64,000 bases of DNA from Butyrivibrio sp. (GCF_017940685.1 NZ_JAGAYD010000015.1:3785-67784); one strand, 5' to 3'; shown: positions 1,474 through 18,895, counted from the first letter of the stretch. Notes: generated from the sequence alone by a model not told the origin. Translations and numbers: made by a program.

Positions 1474-2559
1474 ATGAATTTGCCTATTACAGTTAATCAA
1501 GAAGATTTATTGGAAATTCTACTCAACATTGCGCCTGCAAGACCGGTGTTTATTTGGGGAGCTCCCGGAATAGGAAAGTCTGCCTTGGTTGAGAAGTTTG
1601 CCATGGAGGTTGGCCTTGAGTGTGTTTCGCTTTTGGGCTCTCAGCTTGCGCCGGAGGATATTATTGGAATTCCACAGATAAGAGGAGAAACTTCGGAGTT
1701 TCTTCCGCCTAAGATGATTGCTAGAAAGGAGCCATACGTTCTTTTCCTGGATGAGCTTAATGCATGTACGCAGGAAGTGCAGAAGGCATTTTATAGTCTT
1801 ATATATGAGAGAAGGATTGGTGAGTATCACCTTCCTGAGGGCAGTGTAGTTATCGGTGCAGGAAACAGAGCCCAGGACTCCGCCATTGTAAAGACCATGT
1901 CTAGTGCGCTGATCAATAGGATGTTCCATGTTCAGCTCAAGCCTGATGTTAAGAGCTGGCTTTCATGGGCTTATGAGAGCGGTATTCATAGCTGGATAAC
2001 TGATTATATCAGTCAGAGGCCAGATCATCTTTTCTCTGATCCACCCAAAACCGAGGAACCCTTTTCTACGCCAAGATCCTGGCACATGCTCAGCGATGCG
2101 CTGAAGGAGTTTGGCGCTGGAGATAAAGAGATTCCAATCGAGACGATCAGAATGCTTGCTTACGGAAGTGTAAGTGCGAGCCATGCTGGGATGTTTGCAG
2201 CATTTGTTAAGCAGCTCGATAACAAGTATTTGCTTGAAGATATTATCAAAGGTGAAGCCAAGTGGCCTGATAAACCTGAGGATAGAGATGTACTGTACTT
2301 CCTCGCTCAGTCCTTCCGAGCAAGACTTCTTCATGATCTGCCTACGCAGAAGTCGGAGATAGACAAGAAAAATCAGTATTTTGCTCATAGGGCGAAAGCT
2401 CTTTTGAAGGAGCTGGCACAGCTTAACTATGAGCTTGCACAGATGGTGGTATCTGCAGATGATGGCAAGATCCTTCCTGAGTGGTTCATGGTTGAGATAG
2501 TAAGGGATTTGCCACGCCTTGCATCACAGGATAAGAAAAAAGATGGGAAAACAGCGTAA
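1474..2559 (+). CDS. MoxR-like AAA+ ATPase
   Basis: Walker A GAPGIGKS, Walker B LFLDELN, GAGNR sensor, SALINR; RBS aaggag; overlaps the vWA gene. Confidence 0.9.
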   Translation: MNLPITVNQEDLLEILLNIAPARPVFIWGAPGIGKSALVEKFAMEVGLECVSLLGSQLAPEDIIGIPQIRGETSEFLPPKMIARKEPYVLFLDELNACTQEVQKAFYSLIYERRIGEYHLPEGSVVIGAGNRAQDSAIVKTMSSALINRMFHVQLKPDVKSWLSWAYESGIHSWITDYISQRPDHLFSDPPKTEEPFSTPRSWHMLSDALKEFGAGDKEIPIETIRMLAYGSVSASHAGMFAAFVKQLDNKYLLEDIIKGEAKWPDKPEDRDVLYFLAQSFRARLLHDLPTQKSEIDKKNQYFAHRAKALLKELAQLNYELAQMVVSADDGKILPEWFMVEIVRDLPRLASQDKKKDGKTA

Positions 2560-4405
2560 AGAAAAAGAAGATCCAAATCTCATCCGGCTTAATCAAGGAA
2601 TTGCAATTCTTGATGAACACGATGTATTTAAGCATCTGATTCTATTTAATCTTAGAATTGCAGGAAAGAATGAGCTTGGAAAGAAAACTCCTGCAATCTC
2701 TAATTCTAATGGACTAATTCTGGTTAACAAGAATATAAGTCTTTCACCTAAGCAGTGGGCATATGCTATAGCCCACTGCATTTTGCATAATTGCTTTGGA
2801 CATTATGATGAGGATAAGGTTCCCGGGTATTTCGAGGTTGATGAAACCGGAAAAAAGATAAAGAGGGTGAACTTCAACAAAAAGCTTTGGAATATAGCCT
2901 GTGACATATATGTTGATAGATTTCTTCATGATATCAGACTTGGCGAGCCGCTTAATCAGTCTCCTGTCGGAGTTATACCCTTCAGTATCATGGAGGATGA
3001 ACAAAAGATATATGACTATCTTATCAGGGAAAACTGGAATGAGGATAACAACATATACGGAGTAGGTGCGCTGGATTCCATGGACATGGTCGGATTGGAC
3101 AAGCCCTTGGTGTACAAAAAGGACCGATGGGGAGTTCAGGAACAGAATGAATTTGCCAGTGATTTTGCTTATTATCTGGCTAAGTCGGTTTCCAATGCAA
3201 TTGATTATGTGGCTGATCATGAGGATGATAACTCTTTTGGAAAAAGAATTGCCAGCTGGTTTATAAATACGTTTCCACTCTTAGGAGCTATCGCATCGTC
3301 CTTCAAGATAGTGGAAGATATAAATGAATGTAGAAAATATGACATCAGTACTGCAGCTGTTGACGCCTATGAGGGAATTATCTATATCAATACATCAAAG
3401 AGCATGTCTGATGAGGAGTGGCGCTTTGTTATGGCGCATGAATTCATGCATGCAGCTCTTTTACATCATACAAGAGCTGCAGGTAGGGACCATTATCTTT
3501 GGAATATTGCAACGGACTACGTTATCAATGGCTGGCTTGTAGATATGAAAGTGGGATCAATGCCAGAAGGCGTCTTATATGATCCTAAGCTCAAAAATAT
3601 GTCTGCAGAAGAAATCTATGATGAGATCATTCTGGATATGAGAACCTACATGAAGCTTAATACCTTCAGAGGAAACGGTCAGGGCGATATCATGGGAAAA
3701 AGAGCTCCAGCCTCCTTTGGAGGGCAGGGAAGGGGCGTTTCTTTAGATGAGTTCTATAGGAATGCTCTTAATCAAGGGCTTGAATATGAATTGGCAAGAA
3801 GGGGCAGAGGCTATATTCCTGCAGGGCTTGTGCAGGAGATAAGGGCGCTTGCGGTACCACCTGTGCCTTGGGATGTTAAGTTATCAGAGTGGTTCAATGC
3901 ACATATAAGGCCGCTTGAAAAACATAGAAGCTATGCTCATCCCAGTAGGAGACAGAGTAGTACTCCGGATATTCCAAGAGCAAGCTATGTGATCACAGAG
4001 ACAGATAATGCAGCCAGAACTTTTGGAGTGATCATTGATACCTCAGGATCAATGAATGCTGAAGATATTGGAAAAGCGCTGGGGGCTGTATCAAGCTACG
4101 CTGCAGCAAGAGACGTAATGGCTGCCAGAGTGATTTTTTGCGATGCGGATGCTTACGATGGTGGCTACATGACTCCGGATGAAATCGCAGGAAAGGTCAA
4201 GGTTGTTGGCCGAGGAGGAACAAGAATCCAACCTGCCGTAGATCTTTTGCAGAGAGCAAAGGACTTTCCTAAGGACGGACCAATACTGATCATTACTGAT
4301 GGATGGATCGAGGATCACCTGGATATTAAGCGTGAACATGCCTATATACTTCCCACCGGAGGAAGGCTTCCGTTCAGGGCTAGAGGTGAAGTTTTCTACA
4401 TGTAA
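2543..4405 (+). CDS. DUF2201-type putative metallopeptidase + C-terminal vWA domain protein
   Basis: HEFMH (HExxH) plus an earlier degenerate HCILH copy; MIDAS DTSGS, GGGT-like GRGGT, ITDG; start reassigned to ATG 2543. Confidence 0.85.
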   Translation: MGKQRKEKEDPNLIRLNQGIAILDEHDVFKHLILFNLRIAGKNELGKKTPAISNSNGLILVNKNISLSPKQWAYAIAHCILHNCFGHYDEDKVPGYFEVDETGKKIKRVNFNKKLWNIACDIYVDRFLHDIRLGEPLNQSPVGVIPFSIMEDEQKIYDYLIRENWNEDNNIYGVGALDSMDMVGLDKPLVYKKDRWGVQEQNEFASDFAYYLAKSVSNAIDYVADHEDDNSFGKRIASWFINTFPLLGAIASSFKIVEDINECRKYDISTAAVDAYEGIIYINTSKSMSDEEWRFVMAHEFMHAALLHHTRAAGRDHYLWNIATDYVINGWLVDMKVGSMPEGVLYDPKLKNMSAEEIYDEIILDMRTYMKLNTFRGNGQGDIMGKRAPASFGGQGRGVSLDEFYRNALNQGLEYELARRGRGYIPAGLVQEIRALAVPPVPWDVKLSEWFNAHIRPLEKHRSYAHPSRRQSSTPDIPRASYVITETDNAARTFGVIIDTSGSMNAEDIGKALGAVSSYAAARDVMAARVIFCDADAYDGGYMTPDEIAGKVKVVGRGGTRIQPAVDLLQRAKDFPKDGPILIITDGWIEDHLDIKREHAYILPTGGRLPFRARGEVFYM

Positions 4406-4461: not shown

Positions 4462-5064
4462 ATGACTACTAAAGAAAAGATCATTTTTGAGATAAATGGT
4501 GCTGATGCTAAGAAGCTAAAGAGATTTGAGCGACAGCATAAGAACTGCCCTATGGGAATGGAGGGAGGAAGATTTTCTTATACATTTATACCCACAGGTC
4601 TTGGACTTGCAATAACAGTGAAATGCTCGTGCGGACAGCAGCTTCTTCTCGGAGACTTTTTAGATGGACCAGGTGCGGAGTATGATGAGGAAAATTTACG
4701 GCCATTAACTGAGGATGGCATTAAGAATAAACAGTTTGAGGAAGCTGCTCTGATGATACTAGGTCTTGAGGATCGCAGATTCTTTAAGATGGCTATTGGA
4801 CTGGAGCAGTCCTTTGAGATTGTTTATGCCTATGCTGTGGGAGTCGCACGTTATGGAGATCCAAGGATATCAAAGGCGATTCTTTATAAGGTAAGCGTAA
4901 ATGCACTGCATAGACAAGTGAAGAATTATACAGGGACTGAAGAAGAAAACCTGGAGAAATTCTTTGAGCATTTTAAGTCAGTGGTTTTGGAAGAGATGGA
5001 TAAGTACCATTCTGACAATGAGAGGCTTAGAGAAAAGTGTTTGAGCAAGCAGAATAAGTATTGA
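4462..5064 (+). CDS. Hypothetical protein
   Basis: 200-aa ORF with RBS aggag; CxCG motif. Confidence 0.7.
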   Translation: MTTKEKIIFEINGADAKKLKRFERQHKNCPMGMEGGRFSYTFIPTGLGLAITVKCSCGQQLLLGDFLDGPGAEYDEENLRPLTEDGIKNKQFEEAALMILGLEDRRFFKMAIGLEQSFEIVYAYAVGVARYGDPRISKAILYKVSVNALHRQVKNYTGTEEENLEKFFEHFKSVVLEEMDKYHSDNERLREKCLSKQNKY

Positions 5065-11521: not shown

Positions 11522-11656
11522 TGCTTTCAACTAGCAGTTAAATGACAGGCGTGGCATAGAATAGTACGATTGAATTAAGTATATGTTGATTTGAGTTTAG
11601 GGAGTCGTGCTAATGAATTCTAAGATATTAGGTTTTATAAAGGATAATCCGGATAC

Positions 11657-11938
11657 ATGGGAAAATACGCGAAATTATGGATTTGTGCAAGAAATACGAA
11701 GAGCTTGAGGGGGATGATTGTGGCAGATTTGAACCTTGGTGGAAGGATATATTGTGATATTCCTGATGATTTAGCAAGTAAGATTATTGATGAAATACGT
11801 TCCGCAGAAAAGCTGGATCGTGATGAATTGGAACGTAAGTGCCAGGAACTAAAACAGAAGATTGTTTTTAAAAGAGGGAAAAGGCTTGAGCAGAGTATTA
11901 GTAATTCCAGATGTGCATTTAAAACCCTGGATTTTTGA
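11657..11938 (+). CDS. Hypothetical protein
   Basis: 93-aa ORF overlapping the next gene. Confidence 0.45.
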   Translation: MGKYAKLWICARNTKSLRGMIVADLNLGGRIYCDIPDDLASKIIDEIRSAEKLDRDELERKCQELKQKIVFKRGKRLEQSISNSRCAFKTLDF

Positions 11939-12599
11939 TAAGGCAGATAAAGTTGATAAGAGTTCATATGATGACATTGTGGTTCTTGGTGATCTGGTTG
12001 ATGATTGGGGACAGGGAAATAATCTTGAATTGTATAGGGAGACATTGGATAGGGCGGATGCGTTTGGTGCAGAGCACAATGAGTCCCTCTGGTGCTATGG
12101 TAATCATGATGTTTCATATCTGTGGGATGCAATGGAATCAGGGTACTCTGTAGTTGCAAGAGAAACTGTAATTGAAGGCATTACTAAGCTAGAGAGAACA
12201 CTGGAAGATCGATATAAGTTTATTCACAAGATAGATGATGTGCTATTTAGCCATGCGGGACTTGCTGAGACTTTTGTTTTACATGGATGTGGATATCATA
12301 TGAAAGAAATTGAGGATATTCTTGCTAAGGTCAATCGTATGGGGATGCAGGATTTATGGAGGAACAGTTCTCCAATATGGGTAAGACCGCAGCATGCTTT
12401 CATAAGGATGTTCAGAGATGACCTCTTTTACCAGGTAGTAGGACATACTCCTGTTGAGGAACCACTTGACGCTTGTGGGACGCTGACGCTGGATCTCTTT
12501 TCAACCTATTCAGATGGAACAGCTTATGGTAATCAGAAACTGTACATCATAGATACTATTACAAGAAAGCTTGAGGAAGCTAAGTATGAGGAATCCTGA
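11886..12599 (+). CDS. Calcineurin-like metallophosphoesterase
   Basis: DVH, GDLVD, GNHD, SHAG and GHTP motifs; probable TTG start at 11886. Confidence 0.85.
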   Translation: MSRVLVIPDVHLKPWIFDKADKVDKSSYDDIVVLGDLVDDWGQGNNLELYRETLDRADAFGAEHNESLWCYGNHDVSYLWDAMESGYSVVARETVIEGITKLERTLEDRYKFIHKIDDVLFSHAGLAETFVLHGCGYHMKEIEDILAKVNRMGMQDLWRNSSPIWVRPQHAFIRMFRDDLFYQVVGHTPVEEPLDACGTLTLDLFSTYSDGTAYGNQKLYIIDTITRKLEEAKYEES

Positions 12600-12657
12600 G
12601 AGAATAAGGCCTTTTTGGGACAAGATAGCAGAAGCATGGAAATCCGGTTGTATATAA
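12586..12657 (+). pseudogene. 5' fragment of a DUF1040/YihD-like gene (paralog of 14832-15071)
   Basis: MRNPERIRPFWDKIAEAWK matches MRDPKRIRPFLDKLAEGWE, then stops after 23 aa. Confidence 0.65.
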
Positions 12658-12763
12658 GATAAAAAGCGGTCTTATGTCTCAGGATAGAATAGAGTTCTTT
12701 TTGTCAGAAAACGGTGTGTGGTTAACAAAGGCTGTTCCGGTGAAATATTTGGAGAAAATATAG
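12632..12763 (+). pseudogene. kptA: 3' remnant of RNA 2'-phosphotransferase (Tpt1/KptA)
   Basis: KHGNPVVYKIK/SGLMSQDRIEFFLSENGVWLTKAVPVKYLEKI* with one extra A in the run at 12661-66; matches the recalled Tpt1 C-terminal HGxPVV...SxNGVWLT motif. Confidence 0.65.
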
Positions 12764-12895
12764 AAATGCTTAGGGCCTCATCATTTTAGAATAGATATAT
12801 AGGGTCAAGGCTATTTTTTGCTGACCATCTTATAGTACACCAAAAATGGATAATGGAATCGTGGAGGCAAATAACTCAGAGGAAAGGAGACGCCT

Positions 12896-14831: not shown

Positions 14832-15071
14832 ATGAGAGATCCAAAAAGAATAAGACCGTTTTTAGATAAGCTGGCTGAAGGATGGGAAAAGTATCCAGAT
14901 TTGCGATTTGGTCAATTGGTGATGGATATTGTACCTGACTCTGATAGATTATGGAACTGCGAAGAAGCTGAGTTTCTGAAAAGACTAGATAACTTCGTAT
15001 CCAGAATTGAAGAGGAACATGATGGGAATCTGCTTCTGGTACCGAGAAATGATTCTGACAATGATTTATGA
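14832..15071 (+). CDS. Small DUF1040/YihD-like protein
   Basis: MRDPKRI...W...PDLRFGQL signature; ends 24 nt before the retron ncRNA. Confidence 0.65.
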   Translation: MRDPKRIRPFLDKLAEGWEKYPDLRFGQLVMDIVPDSDRLWNCEEAEFLKRLDNFVSRIEEEHDGNLLLVPRNDSDNDL

Positions 15072-15095
15072 TTTGGTCCGGATTGGATAATAATT

Positions 15096-15262
15096 TGCGG
15101 AACTCTAGCGCAGCTGGCAAACGTCGGCACGAGTGGCGAGTCGTTACTCGGAAAAGAACTATGTAGCATTATAATTGTAGCTGTTCCACTGTAGTGAAAT
15201 GCACGCTTCACGTGCTAGACTACAGCTCCACAGCAACAATATTCTTACTGTTTTGTTCCGCA
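15096..15262 (+). ncRNA. Retron msr-msd ncRNA
   Basis: Terminal inverted repeat tgcggaac (15096-103)/gttccgca (15255-62); TAGCG with candidate branching G at 15108; two msr hairpins (15113-28, 15130-50); long msd stem-loop 15174-15240. Confidence 0.85.
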
Positions 15263-15288
15263 TTGGTATGTAATGGAGGAAAGTTAAT

Positions 15289-16212
15289 ATGGTTGTTCAC
15301 AGAGAGCTTTCCTCCCTGTGCCAAGATCTTGGTTATTCTGCAAGAGCGTTATATTCGCTGAGTAATTCAGTGTCTGAGCACTATCATGATGCTATGATCC
15401 CTAAGGCAAATGGAGAATATAGGCTCTTACATATTCCGGATAAGTTCATGAAAGCTGTTCAGAAGAGTATCGCACAGAATATTCTGTCTTATGAGGATAT
15501 CTCACCCTATGCCATGGCATATAGACCCGGAGGCAGTACTAAGGCAAATGCATTCCCTCATGTGGGTGCATCAATGGTTATGAAGCTTGATGTGCGTAAA
15601 TTCTTCGATCACATTACCTATCCTATGGTAAAGGAAAAAGTGTTTCCGTCAGAGAAATACTCGGAATCAAATAGAATACTTCTGTCGGTTTTGTGTGTTT
15701 ATAATCATGCAATACCTCAAGGAGCGCCAACTTCTCCGGCTATTTCTAATATAATTCTTAGAGATTTTGATAATCGCGTCGGCGACTGGTGTGGTAAAAG
15801 CGGTATTACATATACCAGATACTGCGATGATCTTACCTTTTCTGGGGAGTTTGAGCCGAAAGAGGTAAAGGCATTTGTGAAGAAAGAATTATTCAAGGAA
15901 GGCTTTTTTCTTAATTCCAAGAAAACGATTGTGCTTCGAAATGGGCAGCGCAAAGAAATTACAGGAATTGTTGTCAATGAAAAGGCAGCTGTGCCTGCAA
16001 GATATAAAAAGAGAATAAGGCAGGAACTTTATTATTGCCGGAAATTTGGGATTGATGAGCATGTAAAGAGACTTGGATTACCTGAAAGTACCGAAGCATA
16101 TGCAAGGAAGCTTCTTGGCAGAATCAATTACGTTCTATCAGTTGAACCCGATAATGATGAAATGAAAAGGGGAAGAGCTGAGCTATTATCTTGGTTTCAG
16201 TCTACTTCCTAA
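15289..16212 (+). CDS. Retron-type reverse transcriptase
   Basis: NAxxH region X (NAFPH), PQGAPTSP, YCDD catalytic motif, ITG region Y; RBS ggagga; no fused domain. Confidence 0.93.
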   Translation: MVVHRELSSLCQDLGYSARALYSLSNSVSEHYHDAMIPKANGEYRLLHIPDKFMKAVQKSIAQNILSYEDISPYAMAYRPGGSTKANAFPHVGASMVMKLDVRKFFDHITYPMVKEKVFPSEKYSESNRILLSVLCVYNHAIPQGAPTSPAISNIILRDFDNRVGDWCGKSGITYTRYCDDLTFSGEFEPKEVKAFVKKELFKEGFFLNSKKTIVLRNGQRKEITGIVVNEKAAVPARYKKRIRQELYYCRKFGIDEHVKRLGLPESTEAYARKLLGRINYVLSVEPDNDEMKRGRAELLSWFQSTS

Positions 16213-16218
16213 CATTAA

Positions 16219-16326
16219 GAGGTTGATGAGAATGGTATTAGTAGGACGCTTACATGTATTGGTTTTAAGCCACTACCTGATGATGTGGCGCATGCAATCA
16301 GTAAGAAATATCAGTTGTTTAAGTGA
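16219..16326 (+). pseudogene. 3' remnant of a PTH2-like peptidyl-tRNA hydrolase gene
   Basis: EVDENGISRTLTCIGFKPLPDDVAHAISKKYQLFK* has no start codon; TLTCIGFxP resembles the PTH2 C-terminal T-x-x-G-x-x-P motif (recalled). Confidence 0.55.
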
Positions 16327-16337
16327 GGAATTTTTAT

Positions 16338-16589
16338 ATGGTAGAAGATAAATGGAGCTTTAAGGGTACGCCATGGGAGTTTGTTCACTTAGTGCGTCAC
16401 GCATGTGTTGTTTATGAATGTGTAAAAAGGAAAAGAAATGGCATTCTAGAAATTCTTATGGATGATGAGGTATTTGAGAAAGCGGCAGATGAATTTGGAA
16501 TTACTTACGATACAATAAAAAATGAGATGTGTAGAAATCTGGATTTTGCTGAGCGTCTTGATGAAATCATGGAGAATTGCAAAAAATAG
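16338..16589 (+). CDS. Small hypothetical protein
   Basis: 83 aa from ATG 16338 after gagga. Confidence 0.55.
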   Translation: MVEDKWSFKGTPWEFVHLVRHACVVYECVKRKRNGILEILMDDEVFEKAADEFGITYDTIKNEMCRNLDFAERLDEIMENCKK

Positions 16590-16599
16590 AGATTGGAGC

Positions 16600-17325
16600 A
16601 TGTTTAGAAAAATGATAAGAGAATATGTTGAGGACTATGTAAAGTATTTTCCAGATAAATGGAGTTGGGATTTAAAGAGCTCACCAGAACAACATGAAAT
16701 ATACATGCGCACTAGAGCTAGGAGAAGTAAGGGGAATAGTTATAAGAATAATGACCTTCTCCCGGATTTTTATTCTATAGAGCGCGATGCGGACCAGTTT
16801 GGCCTGGAACATGTGGAGTGGACGGACTTTTTTGGTCTTACTTGGGTTGGAAAAAAGGGGGTTCATGCATACGTTGGGGCGCCCAATTATGAAGGAAATA
16901 TATACTACTATGATGATAATGACGAATGCGATGAAGAAGTCTTCCGCATTTCTTATGACTACGATGCATATGATAATCAACCGCCGGATGATACATATAC
17001 AAGAATACGGCAGAGGGGGATTCATCATTGGATTGATACGGCCAACGTTGTTGATATCAGTTATAAGTATTTTGTTGATAATCACTTGTTCAAAGACACT
17101 CACATTGATCTCATATATGAAGATGGACAAAAATTAACAGTCTATTCTGAGTATGAGGAATTGATCATAGGCTTGATGAAGCATGGGAAAGAAGAACTAG
17201 TTAAGAAAGTTTTTGATTCTATGAATGAGCACTTTATTAAACTACGTGATTCTGATAGAGAGGATGAACGCAAGTTTTTCCCTGGTAAGACAGCAGAGGA
17301 AATGTTTCTTGGCGATGAATATTGA
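16600..17325 (+). CDS. Hypothetical acidic protein
   Basis: 241 aa from ATG 16600 after ggag. Confidence 0.7.
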   Translation: MFRKMIREYVEDYVKYFPDKWSWDLKSSPEQHEIYMRTRARRSKGNSYKNNDLLPDFYSIERDADQFGLEHVEWTDFFGLTWVGKKGVHAYVGAPNYEGNIYYYDDNDECDEEVFRISYDYDAYDNQPPDDTYTRIRQRGIHHWIDTANVVDISYKYFVDNHLFKDTHIDLIYEDGQKLTVYSEYEELIIGLMKHGKEELVKKVFDSMNEHFIKLRDSDREDERKFFPGKTAEEMFLGDEY

Positions 17326-17466: not shown

Positions 17467-17488
17467 GGAAAATTGTCTGTCAGCTAAA

Positions 17489-17591
17489 GATGTCCTGTGA
17501 CGGTTCTGACAGGACGGTAAACAAAAAATTGACCGAGCGTGGATGTCCTGTGACGGTTCCGACAGGACGGTAAAATAAAAATTGACCGAGC
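17489..17591 (+). repeat. Tandem 50-nt direct repeats (period 53)
   Basis: gatgtcctgtgacggttc(t/c)gacaggacggtaaa...aaaaattgaccgagc at 17489-538 and 17542-591; partial unit tail at 17471-84. Confidence 0.9.
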
Positions 17592-17649: not shown

Positions 17650-17677
17650 GGGCATCTATCATGGTGCCCATTTTTTT
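17650..17677 (+). terminator. Intrinsic terminator
   Basis: gggcatc/ggtgccc stem followed by a T7 tract. Confidence 0.65.
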
Positions 17678-17757: not shown

Positions 17758-17925
17758 ATGGAAGGACCATTTGATAAGCTTTATGGAAACACAGTGTTTG
17801 ATCTCAACCACGATGGGAAGATCGATGCGGCTGAGACAGCTTTTTTGTATGATACAATATTAAGTGACGTGATTTCAGACTCGAATGAGAGCGCATTTGA
17901 TGAAGATGAGGAAGATGAGTTTTGA
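17758..17925 (+). CDS. Small acidic protein with EF-hand-like loop
   Basis: 55 aa, DLNHDGKIDAAE loop; RBS aaggag. Confidence 0.6.
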   Translation: MEGPFDKLYGNTVFDLNHDGKIDAAETAFLYDTILSDVISDSNESAFDEDEEDEF

Positions 17926-17926
17926 A

Positions 17927-18895
17927 ATGAAGACACATTTAAGAGAGGTTGGTTTTGCAAATAGAATATTTGCTTTGTTGCTAGTGCTTTCTTGGGGTAT
18001 GTCTTCTTTTCTGTTTTGGAGCGTAAAGAGTCATGCTGAGGATGAGGTTCCGGCTTATAACAAAAGTGCATTTGTTGCTCTTAATAAGAACGTACCGGTA
18101 TTCACGGATGAAGAGATCACCACAAGCTCTTTTGAAAAATATGGAGAGCTTGATAAGCTGGGGAGGTGTACGGCAGCGGTAGCATGTATTGGTCAGGATC
18201 TGATGCCTACCGAGGAGCGTCAGGCTATTGGTGATGTTAGACCGACCGGATGGAAGCAGAACAAATATCCTGGGGTTGTAGATTCGGATCCCCCGTATCT
18301 GTACAACAGATGCCACATGATCGGATATCAGCTTACTGGCGAGAATGCCAATGAAAAGAATCTGATCACCGGAACTCGGTACATGAATGTGGAAGGTATG
18401 CTGCCTTATGAGAATCAAGTGGCGGAGTATGTGTTAAGTACCGGCAGGCATGTAATGTACAGAGTTACGCCAGTATTTACCGGGAAAAATCTTCTCTGTG
18501 ATGGAGTGCAGATTGAAGCGTATTCTGTAGAAGATAAGGGCAAAGGTATTTCTTTTAACGTGTTCTGCTACAACGTTCAGCCTGGAATAGAGATAAATTA
18601 TGCAGATGGCAGCAATAAGCTTGCACCGGATGCAGACGTGGTGGCTGACAGAAATTCTTTTATGATAACTGGCGGAGATTCCGGGAATGGATCAGTAAGG
18701 TCTTCGGCAGGAAGTGATGCTTCTGGTATTCCGGCAGGAACAACATATGTGGTAAACAAGAATACAGGTAAGTTCCATTATCCAAGCTGTGACAGCGTTA
18801 ATGATATGAAAGAGAAAAATAAGGAATACAGCACCAAGACAAGGGATGAGCTGATAAGTGAAGGAAAGAGTCCTTGCAAGAGGTGTAATCCGTAG
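17927..18895 (+). CDS. Secreted/membrane DNA/RNA non-specific endonuclease (EndA-like) with C-terminal Ada-like Zn motif
   Basis: N-terminal hydrophobic segment; NRCH motif, NLITGTRYMN; C-terminal KFHYPSC...PCKRC. Confidence 0.88.
   Translation: MKTHLREVGFANRIFALLLVLSWGMSSFLFWSVKSHAEDEVPAYNKSAFVALNKNVPVFTDEEITTSSFEKYGELDKLGRCTAAVACIGQDLMPTEERQAIGDVRPTGWKQNKYPGVVDSDPPYLYNRCHMIGYQLTGENANEKNLITGTRYMNVEGMLPYENQVAEYVLSTGRHVMYRVTPVFTGKNLLCDGVQIEAYSVEDKGKGISFNVFCYNVQPGIEINYADGSNKLAPDADVVADRNSFMITGGDSGNGSVRSSAGSDASGIPAGTTYVVNKNTGKFHYPSCDSVNDMKEKNKEYSTKTRDELISEGKSPCKRCNP

Follow-up and report, generated by a model that had tools for sequence, protein, structure and literature searches.

The locus at positions 14832-17325 of a 64,000-nucleotide (nt) stretch of Butyrivibrio sp. 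DNA (GCF_017940685.1, NZ_JAGAYD010000015.1:3785-67784; the whole stretch is called the window) raises the question of whether a retron that stands without a recognisable effector is a complete, working element, and to which kind of retron it belongs. A preliminary description had reported a complete retron there, made up of an msr-msd non-coding RNA (ncRNA) and a stand-alone reverse transcriptase (RT), set among remnants of RNA-repair genes. The locus is very probably a functional stand-alone retron of RT clade 2, 'Ec107-like', in which the msr-msd ncRNA (~15096-15262) and the RT gene (15289-16212) form a cassette of ~1.1 kb. The effector-less Ec107-like group is already described, and what is new here is a clean, intact example of it. 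The features of the cassette are as follows (aa, amino acids; ORF, open reading frame; HMM, hidden Markov model; MFE, minimum free energy; msDNA, multicopy single-stranded DNA).

15086-15094, + strand: possible -10 element GATAATAAT directly upstream of a1, without a good -35 element; read from the sequence, with TATAAT-like words at the same place in many relatives
15096-15103, + strand: a1, 5' arm of the a1/a2 stem (TGCGGAAC); perfect 8-bp complement, covariation
15108, + strand: candidate branching guanosine, the G in TAGC, whose 2'-OH would prime msDNA synthesis as in canonical retrons; near-invariant AG
15113-15128, + strand: msr hairpin 1; in the MFE and centroid folds, covariation of helix 2
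15130-15150, + strand: msr hairpin 2, whose loop and closing pairs hold the family-invariant GCGAGTCG (15136-15143); fold and alignment
15174-15240, + strand: msd stem-loop, the predicted template of the msDNA hairpin; inverted repeat, fold, covariation of helices 4-7
15255-15262, + strand: a2, 3' arm of the a1/a2 stem (GTTCCGCA); inverted repeat, covariation
15275-15315, + strand: hairpin of the RT Shine-Dalgarno sequence GGAGGAAAG (15275-15283) with codons 7-9 CTTTCCTCC (15307-15315), enclosing the ATG; 9-bp perfect inverted repeat
15289-16212, + strand: retron RT, 307 aa (NAFPH 87-91, D101, YCDD 178-181, ITG 224-226); ORF call and HMMs

The RT ORF begins 26 nt past a2, downstream of a GGAGG ribosome-binding site, and its call bears out the 307-aa protein with NAFPH, YCDD and ITG that had been described. 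These motifs are those of retron RTs, NAFPH corresponding to region X (NAxxH), YCDD to YxDD and ITG to the VTG-like motif of region Y, and they are conserved among relatives. When aligned with 20 relatives (42-85% identity), the window RT retains every invariant column, including D101, N87-A88..H91, Y178-C179-D180-D181 and T225-G226. The protein matches Pfam RVT_1 (E 7.7e-21). Its best PADLOC model is RT_Ec107-like (E 4.5e-126, 418 bits, 297/307 model positions, 8-304), followed by RT_III-A (E 3.6e-97, 323 bits), other type III-A models down to 3.9e-69 and the other retron types below these; by HMM score (418 bits, as against 323 bits for the top-scoring type III-A model) the RT belongs with the Ec107-like sequences. 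The best NCBIfam match is retron_St85_RT (1.1e-64), and the models of group II introns and of defence-associated reverse transcriptases (DRT) score far lower. The Nei-Gojobori ratio of nonsynonymous to synonymous substitution (dN/dS) is 0.17 against the 91%-identical copy of locus L045 and 0.05 against that of L001 (Butyrivibrio proteoclasticus P18; L numbers designate loci of relatives), and the RT gene is therefore under purifying selection. The same genome carries a second RT (L044; contig C160, 643-1377) with a YADD motif and a maturase-like C-terminus, cut by the contig end; it is of the group II intron maturase type, and a relationship to the retron was rejected.

The region before the RT gene encodes an RNA with an a1/a2 repeat, a conserved G after a1, and msr and msd hairpins. 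The inverted-repeat search pairs a1 with a2 over 8 nt with 100% complementarity, and the two arms of the msd stem (15174-15195 and 15219-15240) over 22 nt with 77% complementarity. Folded as RNA, the 191 nt from 15085 to 15275 adopt the canonical retron layout of an a1/a2 stem, two msr hairpins and a long interrupted msd hairpin, with an MFE of -61.3 kcal/mol (z = -3.2; 1 of 200 shuffled sequences was as stable). Search, fold and alignment thus place the a1/a2 repeat, the candidate G15108, the two msr hairpins and the msd where the preliminary description had put them. Alignments of the upstream regions show that the ncRNA is clearly homologous among relatives of the window RT. Within them A15107 and G15108 hardly vary among 29 aligned relatives and not at all in a 20-sequence alignment, GCGAGTCG of msr hairpin 2 is invariant in all 29 and is likely to be the element recognised by the RT, and the msd is longer in some relatives by insertions close to its tip. 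The a1/a2 stem abuts the AG in most relatives and ends 4 nt before it in the window and its closest relatives. Because the AG is near-invariant and the stem of most relatives ends at it, G15108 is the best candidate for the branching guanosine, for which a priming role is suggested by the canonical retrons. A scan of 13-19 kb against Rfam at E <= 10 gave chance matches only, with a library that holds no retron family.

Covariation was assessed on the upstream regions of the 29 relatives, aligned and trimmed to 20 sequences, onto which the centroid structure of the window was mapped. RNAalifold on the raw MAFFT alignment recovered three helices only, as msd insertions and cut 5' ends spoiled the alignment, and it was replaced by pair counting on the trimmed alignment; the a1/a2 arms of the window, L002/L055 and L046 were taken from the inverted-repeat search and the alignment. 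Standard pairs occupy 80.1% of the cells, a share that falls to 34-42% once the 3' partners are shifted by 1-3 columns, and at least one double (compensatory) change is present in 33 of the 45 pairs. None of 500 column shuffles matched the observed value on any of five measures. Compensatory changes occur in 7 of the 8 pairs of helix 1 (a1/a2; 93% paired cells), 5 of the 6 pairs of helix 2 (msr hairpin 1), 6 of the 9 pairs of helix 3 (msr hairpin 2; 93% paired cells) and 15 pairs of helices 4-7 (msd). The covariation of a1 with a2 is strong across loci, with arms such as GGAACAATA/TATTGTTCC, GCGGGACA/TGTCCCGC, GGGCAGCA/TGCTGTCC and CCGACCGGACA/TGTCCGGTCGG. The RNA structure is conserved and covarying beyond chance, and together with the RT HMM matches and the intact RT residues it upholds the description of the retron as complete.

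Signals for expression lie on both sides of the ncRNA. A promoter consensus scan called none upstream of a1 in the window, and read-through from the preceding 79-aa gene is therefore an equally possible source of the transcript; the copy in L055 has a full promoter (TTGACT-17-TACAAT) 8 nt before a1 as well as its own terminator. Downstream, only one weak terminator site is predicted between the RT stop and 17650. The start of the RT gene is enclosed in a hairpin (MFE -18.3 kcal/mol, z = -2.9) formed between the Shine-Dalgarno sequence and codons 7-9, which encode the LSS of an ELSSL motif. Relatives were folded one sequence at a time for this hairpin, as the spacing shifts ungapped for RNAalifold, and it was present in all those folded with the RT start correctly set, at -13 to -34 kcal/mol. 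Its 3' arm is constant at synonymous sites, and compensatory switches from A:T to G:C occur in L004, L014 and L029. Conservation of the hairpin across the family suggests that translation of the RT is kept low, and the hairpin is probably a translational control of the RT throughout the Ec107-like family.

From these elements and from canonical retrons we infer the following course. Transcription would start at or just before a1, from the weak -10 element, or read through from the 79-aa gene, and the transcript would fold into the a1/a2 stem, the two msr hairpins and the msd hairpin. The RT would bind the msr, probably by way of the hairpin with the invariant GCGAGUCG, prime on the 2'-OH of G15108 and copy the msd leftwards from ~15254 to ~15165. 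RNase H would then trim the product to a branched msDNA ~85-95 nt long that carries an imperfect 22-bp hairpin and is joined to the msr RNA. The level of RT would probably be held low by the conserved hairpin, which hides both the ribosome-binding site and the start codon.

The genes around the cassette were compared with those of relatives. For this purpose 42 genome loci of relatives were fetched, of which the 39 with a full or near-full RT were analysed together with the window (40 genome loci); all ORFs were called and clustered. Also compared were 13 distinct metagenome or genome contexts of the sub-branch to which the window belongs; ~50 related loci were covered overall. The features next to the cassette, and one pair of genes farther upstream, are listed here as context only and lie outside the retron.

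1474-4405, + strand: MoxR-type AAA+ ATPase (361 aa) and metallopeptidase-VWA protein (DUF2201_N/DUF2201, 628 aa), co-oriented with the retron and 10.7 kb upstream of it; Pfam
14832-15071, + strand: 79-aa ORF, ending 24 nt before a1
16219-16323, + strand: C-terminal remnant (35 codons) of a PTH2 peptidyl-tRNA hydrolase gene; homology to the PTH2 of L001
16323-16589, + strand: 88-aa ORF, with no homolog in any fetched locus
16600-17325, + strand: 241-aa ORF, recurring near the RT in L045 and L054 only

Across the 40 genome loci and the 13 contexts no gene is conserved beside the RT. The immediate neighbours vary between loci and frequently lie on the opposite strand, and in the 40 genome loci the only clusters besides the RT that are common to many loci are antisense shadow ORFs within the RT gene itself. 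This tabulation of the neighbourhoods of close RT homologs, which had been proposed as a check, thus gave a heterogeneous picture in which no gene recurs beside the RT across the branch, and the homologs do not consistently carry a known effector that would simply have been deleted in the window. No ATPase with an HNH or TOPRIM partner, as in types I-A and I-B, and no PADLOC effector match was found among the ORFs scanned from 11.9 to 18.9 kb, and no gene for a phosphoribosyltransferase-like (PRTase-like) or winged helix-turn-helix (wHTH) protein, as in type III-A, stands beside the RT in the window or in the ~50 related loci. The window's 79-, 88-, 241-, 401- and 217-aa ORFs gave no match in Pfam, PHROG, PADLOC or NCBIfam (E <= 0.1 / 0.01), and in 39 of the 40 genome loci the 6 kb around the RT contain no homolog of them, the sole exception being a homolog of the 79-aa ORF in L001, 4 kb off. 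The earlier statement that no recognisable effector is fused or adjacent therefore stands, as does the position of the 79-aa gene (end at 15071); the label 'DUF1040-like' given to that gene found no match to confirm it. With neighbours this heterogeneous and flanking ORFs unlinked to the RT, no cis effector, known or novel, travels with this RT. One lineage differs in its surroundings: in L059-L061 (RT 70% identical) the RT stop is immediately followed by the first base of a gene for a 339-aa AriA/PtuA-like ABC ATPase, with which a downstream gene for a 1087-aa SNF2-type helicase overlaps; the two may be a captured effector pair of that lineage.

The lack of a recurrent accessory or effector gene next to the RT agrees with the published picture of the group (PMC13712802). 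Stand-alone (msr-msd)-RT cassettes were described in RT clade 2 'Ec107-like' by Mestre et al. in 2020 (PMC7736814), who found an associated protein for only 2 of 59 RTs of the Retron-Eco5/Ec107 branch and left open whether the effectors act in trans or stand-alone retrons have another function. In the SPIRE metagenome survey of 2026 the group clade2_Ec107like, with 192 members, was the second most abundant retron group, 93% in Bacillota and 91% host-associated, and was enriched in Eubacteriales and Lachnospirales (PMC13712802). The absence of an effector, presented in the preliminary description as the surprise of the locus, is thus real, although it is not novel, being a defining property of published clade-2 Ec107-like retrons (PMC7736814, PMC13712802). 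The window shares with Retron-Eco5 (Ec107) and the clade-2 Ec107-like group the match to the Ec107-like HMM, an ncRNA placed directly before an RT of ~300 aa without an extra domain, the want of a conserved accessory gene and the compact, self-contained cassette; the host range and habitat of the group, Bacillota and Lachnospirales of gut and rumen, are also those of the window. The Ec107 element of Escherichia coli is presumably only a distant relative in sequence, and the window copy differs from it in lying in a conflict/RNA-repair island and not between housekeeping genes.

The type III-A retrons (RT, PRTase-like protein and wHTH protein) are a sister lineage, the RTs of both being placed on a common node in RT clade 2 (PMC7736814), and they supply the second-best HMM matches to the window RT; beside that RT, however, the PRTase and wHTH genes are missing. 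With the classical tripartite retrons (Ec86/Eco1, Sen2/St85, Ec48 and Ec78) the window shares the a1/a2 repeat, the branching G, the msr and msd hairpins and an RT with NAxxH, YxDD and xTG. In those retrons a cis effector is held by the RT-msDNA, whereas the Ec107-like branch has none, and a guard-and-release mechanism cannot therefore be assumed for it.

The limits of the cassette are sharp. Shared DNA spans 15097-16198 of the window in the comparison with L045, 15098-16166 with L046/47 and 15069-16179 with L001, so that the cassette, ~1.1 kb, runs from a1 to just before the RT stop. The C-terminal tails of the RTs diverge beyond a conserved ...EPxNxEMK motif. The upstream gene varies, being the 79-aa ORF in the window, the VWA gene in L001, L046, L058 and L079, a PadR gene in L055 and a histidine kinase gene in L080. 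Compared with L001, the retron segment is only 80% identical and the island segment 11655-12796 is 95-96% identical, and the cassette has therefore a history separate from its surroundings. It moves as a unit between unrelated sites, and its boundaries, from a1 to the RT C-terminus, suggest how. In phage and plasmid collections relatives reach at most 41% and 39% identity, which gives no evidence that it rides on a sequenced phage or plasmid. No empty site was located in the same-genus genome G262, in which synteny is not kept. Relatives come from rumen and gut Lachnospiraceae and Oscillospiraceae; a strong Ec107-like RT match is present in ~10 of 301 genomes of the family, and the one same-genus genome sampled has none.

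Three other explanations of the locus were weighed. The most probable of them, though unlikely, is that the retron is part of a three-gene system with the MoxR ATPase and the metallopeptidase-VWA (DUF2201) protein, in which the RT-msDNA would guard or license a MoxR-activated protease and from which the partners would have been split here by later insertions. MoxR and DUF2201 genes lie upstream on the same strand, within 11 kb, in 7 of the 13 distinct contexts of the sub-branch (window included); the pair is directly before the retron in L001, L046/47, L058 and L079, 2.1 kb upstream in L070 and 3 kb upstream in L054. In these four adjacent cases the VWA gene ends ~205 nt ahead of the RT start and, where the junction was read, 10-36 nt ahead of a1 or of the retron DNA. 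Of 301 family genomes, 40 have DUF2201_N, as a rule with one copy per ~3 Mb, from which chance co-location within 11 kb would be ~0.001 per genome; with so low a background of both DUF2201_N and Ec107-like RTs, the co-location is not due to chance. L046 and L058 are also the closest pair for RT, MoxR and VWA alike. Pairwise identities across the three genes are only loosely congruent (Spearman 0.5, p = 0.14). Of the 40 genome loci in the wider branch, 38 lack the association, as do 8 of the ~10 retron-bearing genera of the family, and pairs of the same type occur without a retron in L062 and L083; a reverse search with the VWA protein returned one locus, without a retron. In the window itself the pair belongs to a different subfamily (33% identity; a VWA protein of 628 aa against 456 aa) and is ~12 genes away from the retron. 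DNA homology between cassettes starts at a1 and not inside the VWA gene, and the pair has no meaningful PADLOC matches. Defence cargo of other kinds occupies the slot behind the VWA gene as well, for example a DUF262/HEC-06-like gene in L070 and, after the retron, AbiEi in L001, and a cargo hotspot therefore fits better than a partnership. MoxR-VWA conflict modules are widespread without retrons and most Ec107-like retrons are without the pair, although it stands in the window island in the same orientation and directly before the retron in several relatives; any functional link would be a putative one. The pair occurs upstream unusually often in this Lachnospiraceae sub-branch, is not obligate, and goes unmentioned in the published surveys consulted. 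We read the recurrence as a shared island backbone combined with a cargo hotspot. A true partnership would constitute a new retron type with a MoxR-activated protease as effector and the first handle on the role of the Ec107-like group.

It is less probable still that one of the local ORFs (the 241-aa ORF at 16600-17325, the 88-aa ORF at 16323-16589 or the 79-aa ORF at 14832-15071) is a new small effector of the retron, as the preliminary description had offered as one option. These ORFs are on the strand of the RT with short gaps, the absence of a strong terminator between the RT and 17650 makes co-transcription possible (the 88- and 241-aa ORFs are possibly co-transcribed with the RT here), and in two relatives the 241-aa gene stands downstream of the RT, after a gap of 208 nt in L045, the closest of them all (RT 91% identical), and 1.65 kb off in L054. 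Beyond these two contigs, however, the 241-aa ORF is not met within 2 kb of an RT, and it has no RT within 5 kb in any of 6 other representative genomes; homologs of the 79-aa ORF (L001, L045, L052, L053) have no fixed relation to the RT, the 88-aa ORF has none in the fetched loci, and, as noted above, family matches are lacking and no flanking ORF is conserved beside the RT. The 241-aa protein, for which AlphaFold2 gave a poor model from 7 homologs (mean pLDDT 56, N-terminal half <50), showed no toxin-like fold, and no Foldseek match in the PDB was better than E 0.13. The RT is moreover separated from the 88- and 241-aa ORFs by the PTH2 remnant, which begins 6 nt past the RT stop and marks the junction as a recombination scar. 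Slightly less probable again is that the cassette, in common with the gene remnants that surround it, is an inactive or decaying relic. Several genes of the island (KptA, PTH2 and a 97-aa gene) are indeed truncated, L045 has an apparent decayed second retron copy after its 79-aa gene, and the promoter upstream of a1 in the window is weak. Against decay, the RT ORF is full length with all invariant residues and a dN/dS of 0.05-0.17, every ncRNA helix is intact in the window copy, and so are the Shine-Dalgarno sequence and start codon of the RT.

The reading of the locus as a functional stand-alone Ec107-like retron is carried by direct observations: the RT family, the covarying RNA, purifying selection, the lack of a conserved neighbour and the cassette boundaries. 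Several points weigh against it. The placement in clade 2 is a prediction from the PADLOC HMM and from agreement in taxonomy, habitat and architecture with a published description; in the window 4 nt lie between the a1/a2 stem and the candidate branching G, and in most relatives the stem abuts the AG; the promoter upstream of a1 is weak in the window copy and was not called by the scan; the literature search found no paper that assigns a function to the Ec107-like branch; and a defence role is argued by analogy only. Such a role, namely the sensing of phages or mobile elements with a partner encoded elsewhere or by the RT-msDNA acting alone, would be the most likely one by analogy, and takes about half of our expectation; what is left after it and the three rival readings goes to roles not yet imagined. 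The Ec107-like retrons are the one large retron group without a known partner or function, and are among the most abundant in gut Bacillota. To that puzzle the present locus adds a clean, intact example from a rumen-type member of the Lachnospiraceae, whose closest named relative, B. proteoclasticus, is a cultured organism. The cassette boundaries, the family-wide hairpin over the ribosome-binding site of the RT and the recurrent, non-obligate MoxR-VWA neighbour are testable leads. For genome editing the locus provides one more compact RT/ncRNA pair with a well-defined structure.

The setting of the cassette is a defence/conflict island, as indicated by the varied conflict and defence genes beside relatives: a T4-type RNA ligase and a metallophosphoesterase in L077, PARG in L059 and L082, AbiEi in L001, a DUF262/HEC-06-like nuclease in L070, and the AriA/PtuA-like ATPase and SNF2 helicase in L059. 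In the window the island, which is variable and shuffled, encodes upstream, on the same strand, an nSTAND3-type AAA protein, the MoxR ATPase, the DUF2201 metallopeptidase-VWA protein, PARG, helix-turn-helix (HTH) proteins, a PIN7 protein, SIMPL and DUF6847-like proteins and a metallophosphoesterase. Three genes are preserved by their C-terminal ends only, KptA at 12629-12760, PTH2 at 16219-16323 and the 97-aa gene at 11659-11712; in the counterpart island of L001, PTH2, Thg1 and Tpt1/KptA are intact. As the C-terminal ends of KptA and PTH2 survive, the earlier description of the setting as RNA-repair remnants is correct, and the PTH2-like remnant placed 6 nt after the RT stop was likewise recovered, being 86% identical to residues 105-139 of the full PTH2 of P18, a gene that matches Pfam PTH2 (PF01981) with E 3.4e-13. 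A remnant of the last 23-35 codons of PTH2 stands immediately before the 241-aa gene in L048 (4903-4971) and before the 88- and 241-aa genes in the window; given its occurrence in both genomes, the 3' end of PTH2 looks like a site of recurrent recombination through which cassettes are exchanged in the island. Compared with P18, a deletion scar is seen in the window at 11655-12642 and 12586-12796, with flanks that are 95-96% identical to P18 and overlap by 13 nt where they join. About 1.37 kb is gone, comprising most of a paralog of the 79-aa gene, a Thg1-like gene and the first 150 codons of Tpt1/KptA.

In the metagenome contig L045, two short pieces matching 15273-15323 and 15505-15548 of the window lie at 4751-4835, after the homolog of the 79-aa gene, with the intact copy 3 kb upstream; they look like a decayed second retron copy without ncRNA, or could be an assembly artefact. 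Between the 241-aa gene and a terminator at 17650-17669 the window holds two tandem units of ~50 nt (17480-17575; gatgtcctgtgacggttc[t/c]gacaggacggtaaa...attgaccgagc), each with an internal hairpin, which look like a small repeat-containing RNA. At the right edge of the island, 17885-18895 encodes a protein of 336 aa that combines a hydrophobic segment at the N-terminus, an Endonuclea_NS_2 domain and a zinc-binding C-terminus of the Ada type and is predicted to be a secreted or membrane-anchored non-specific nuclease.

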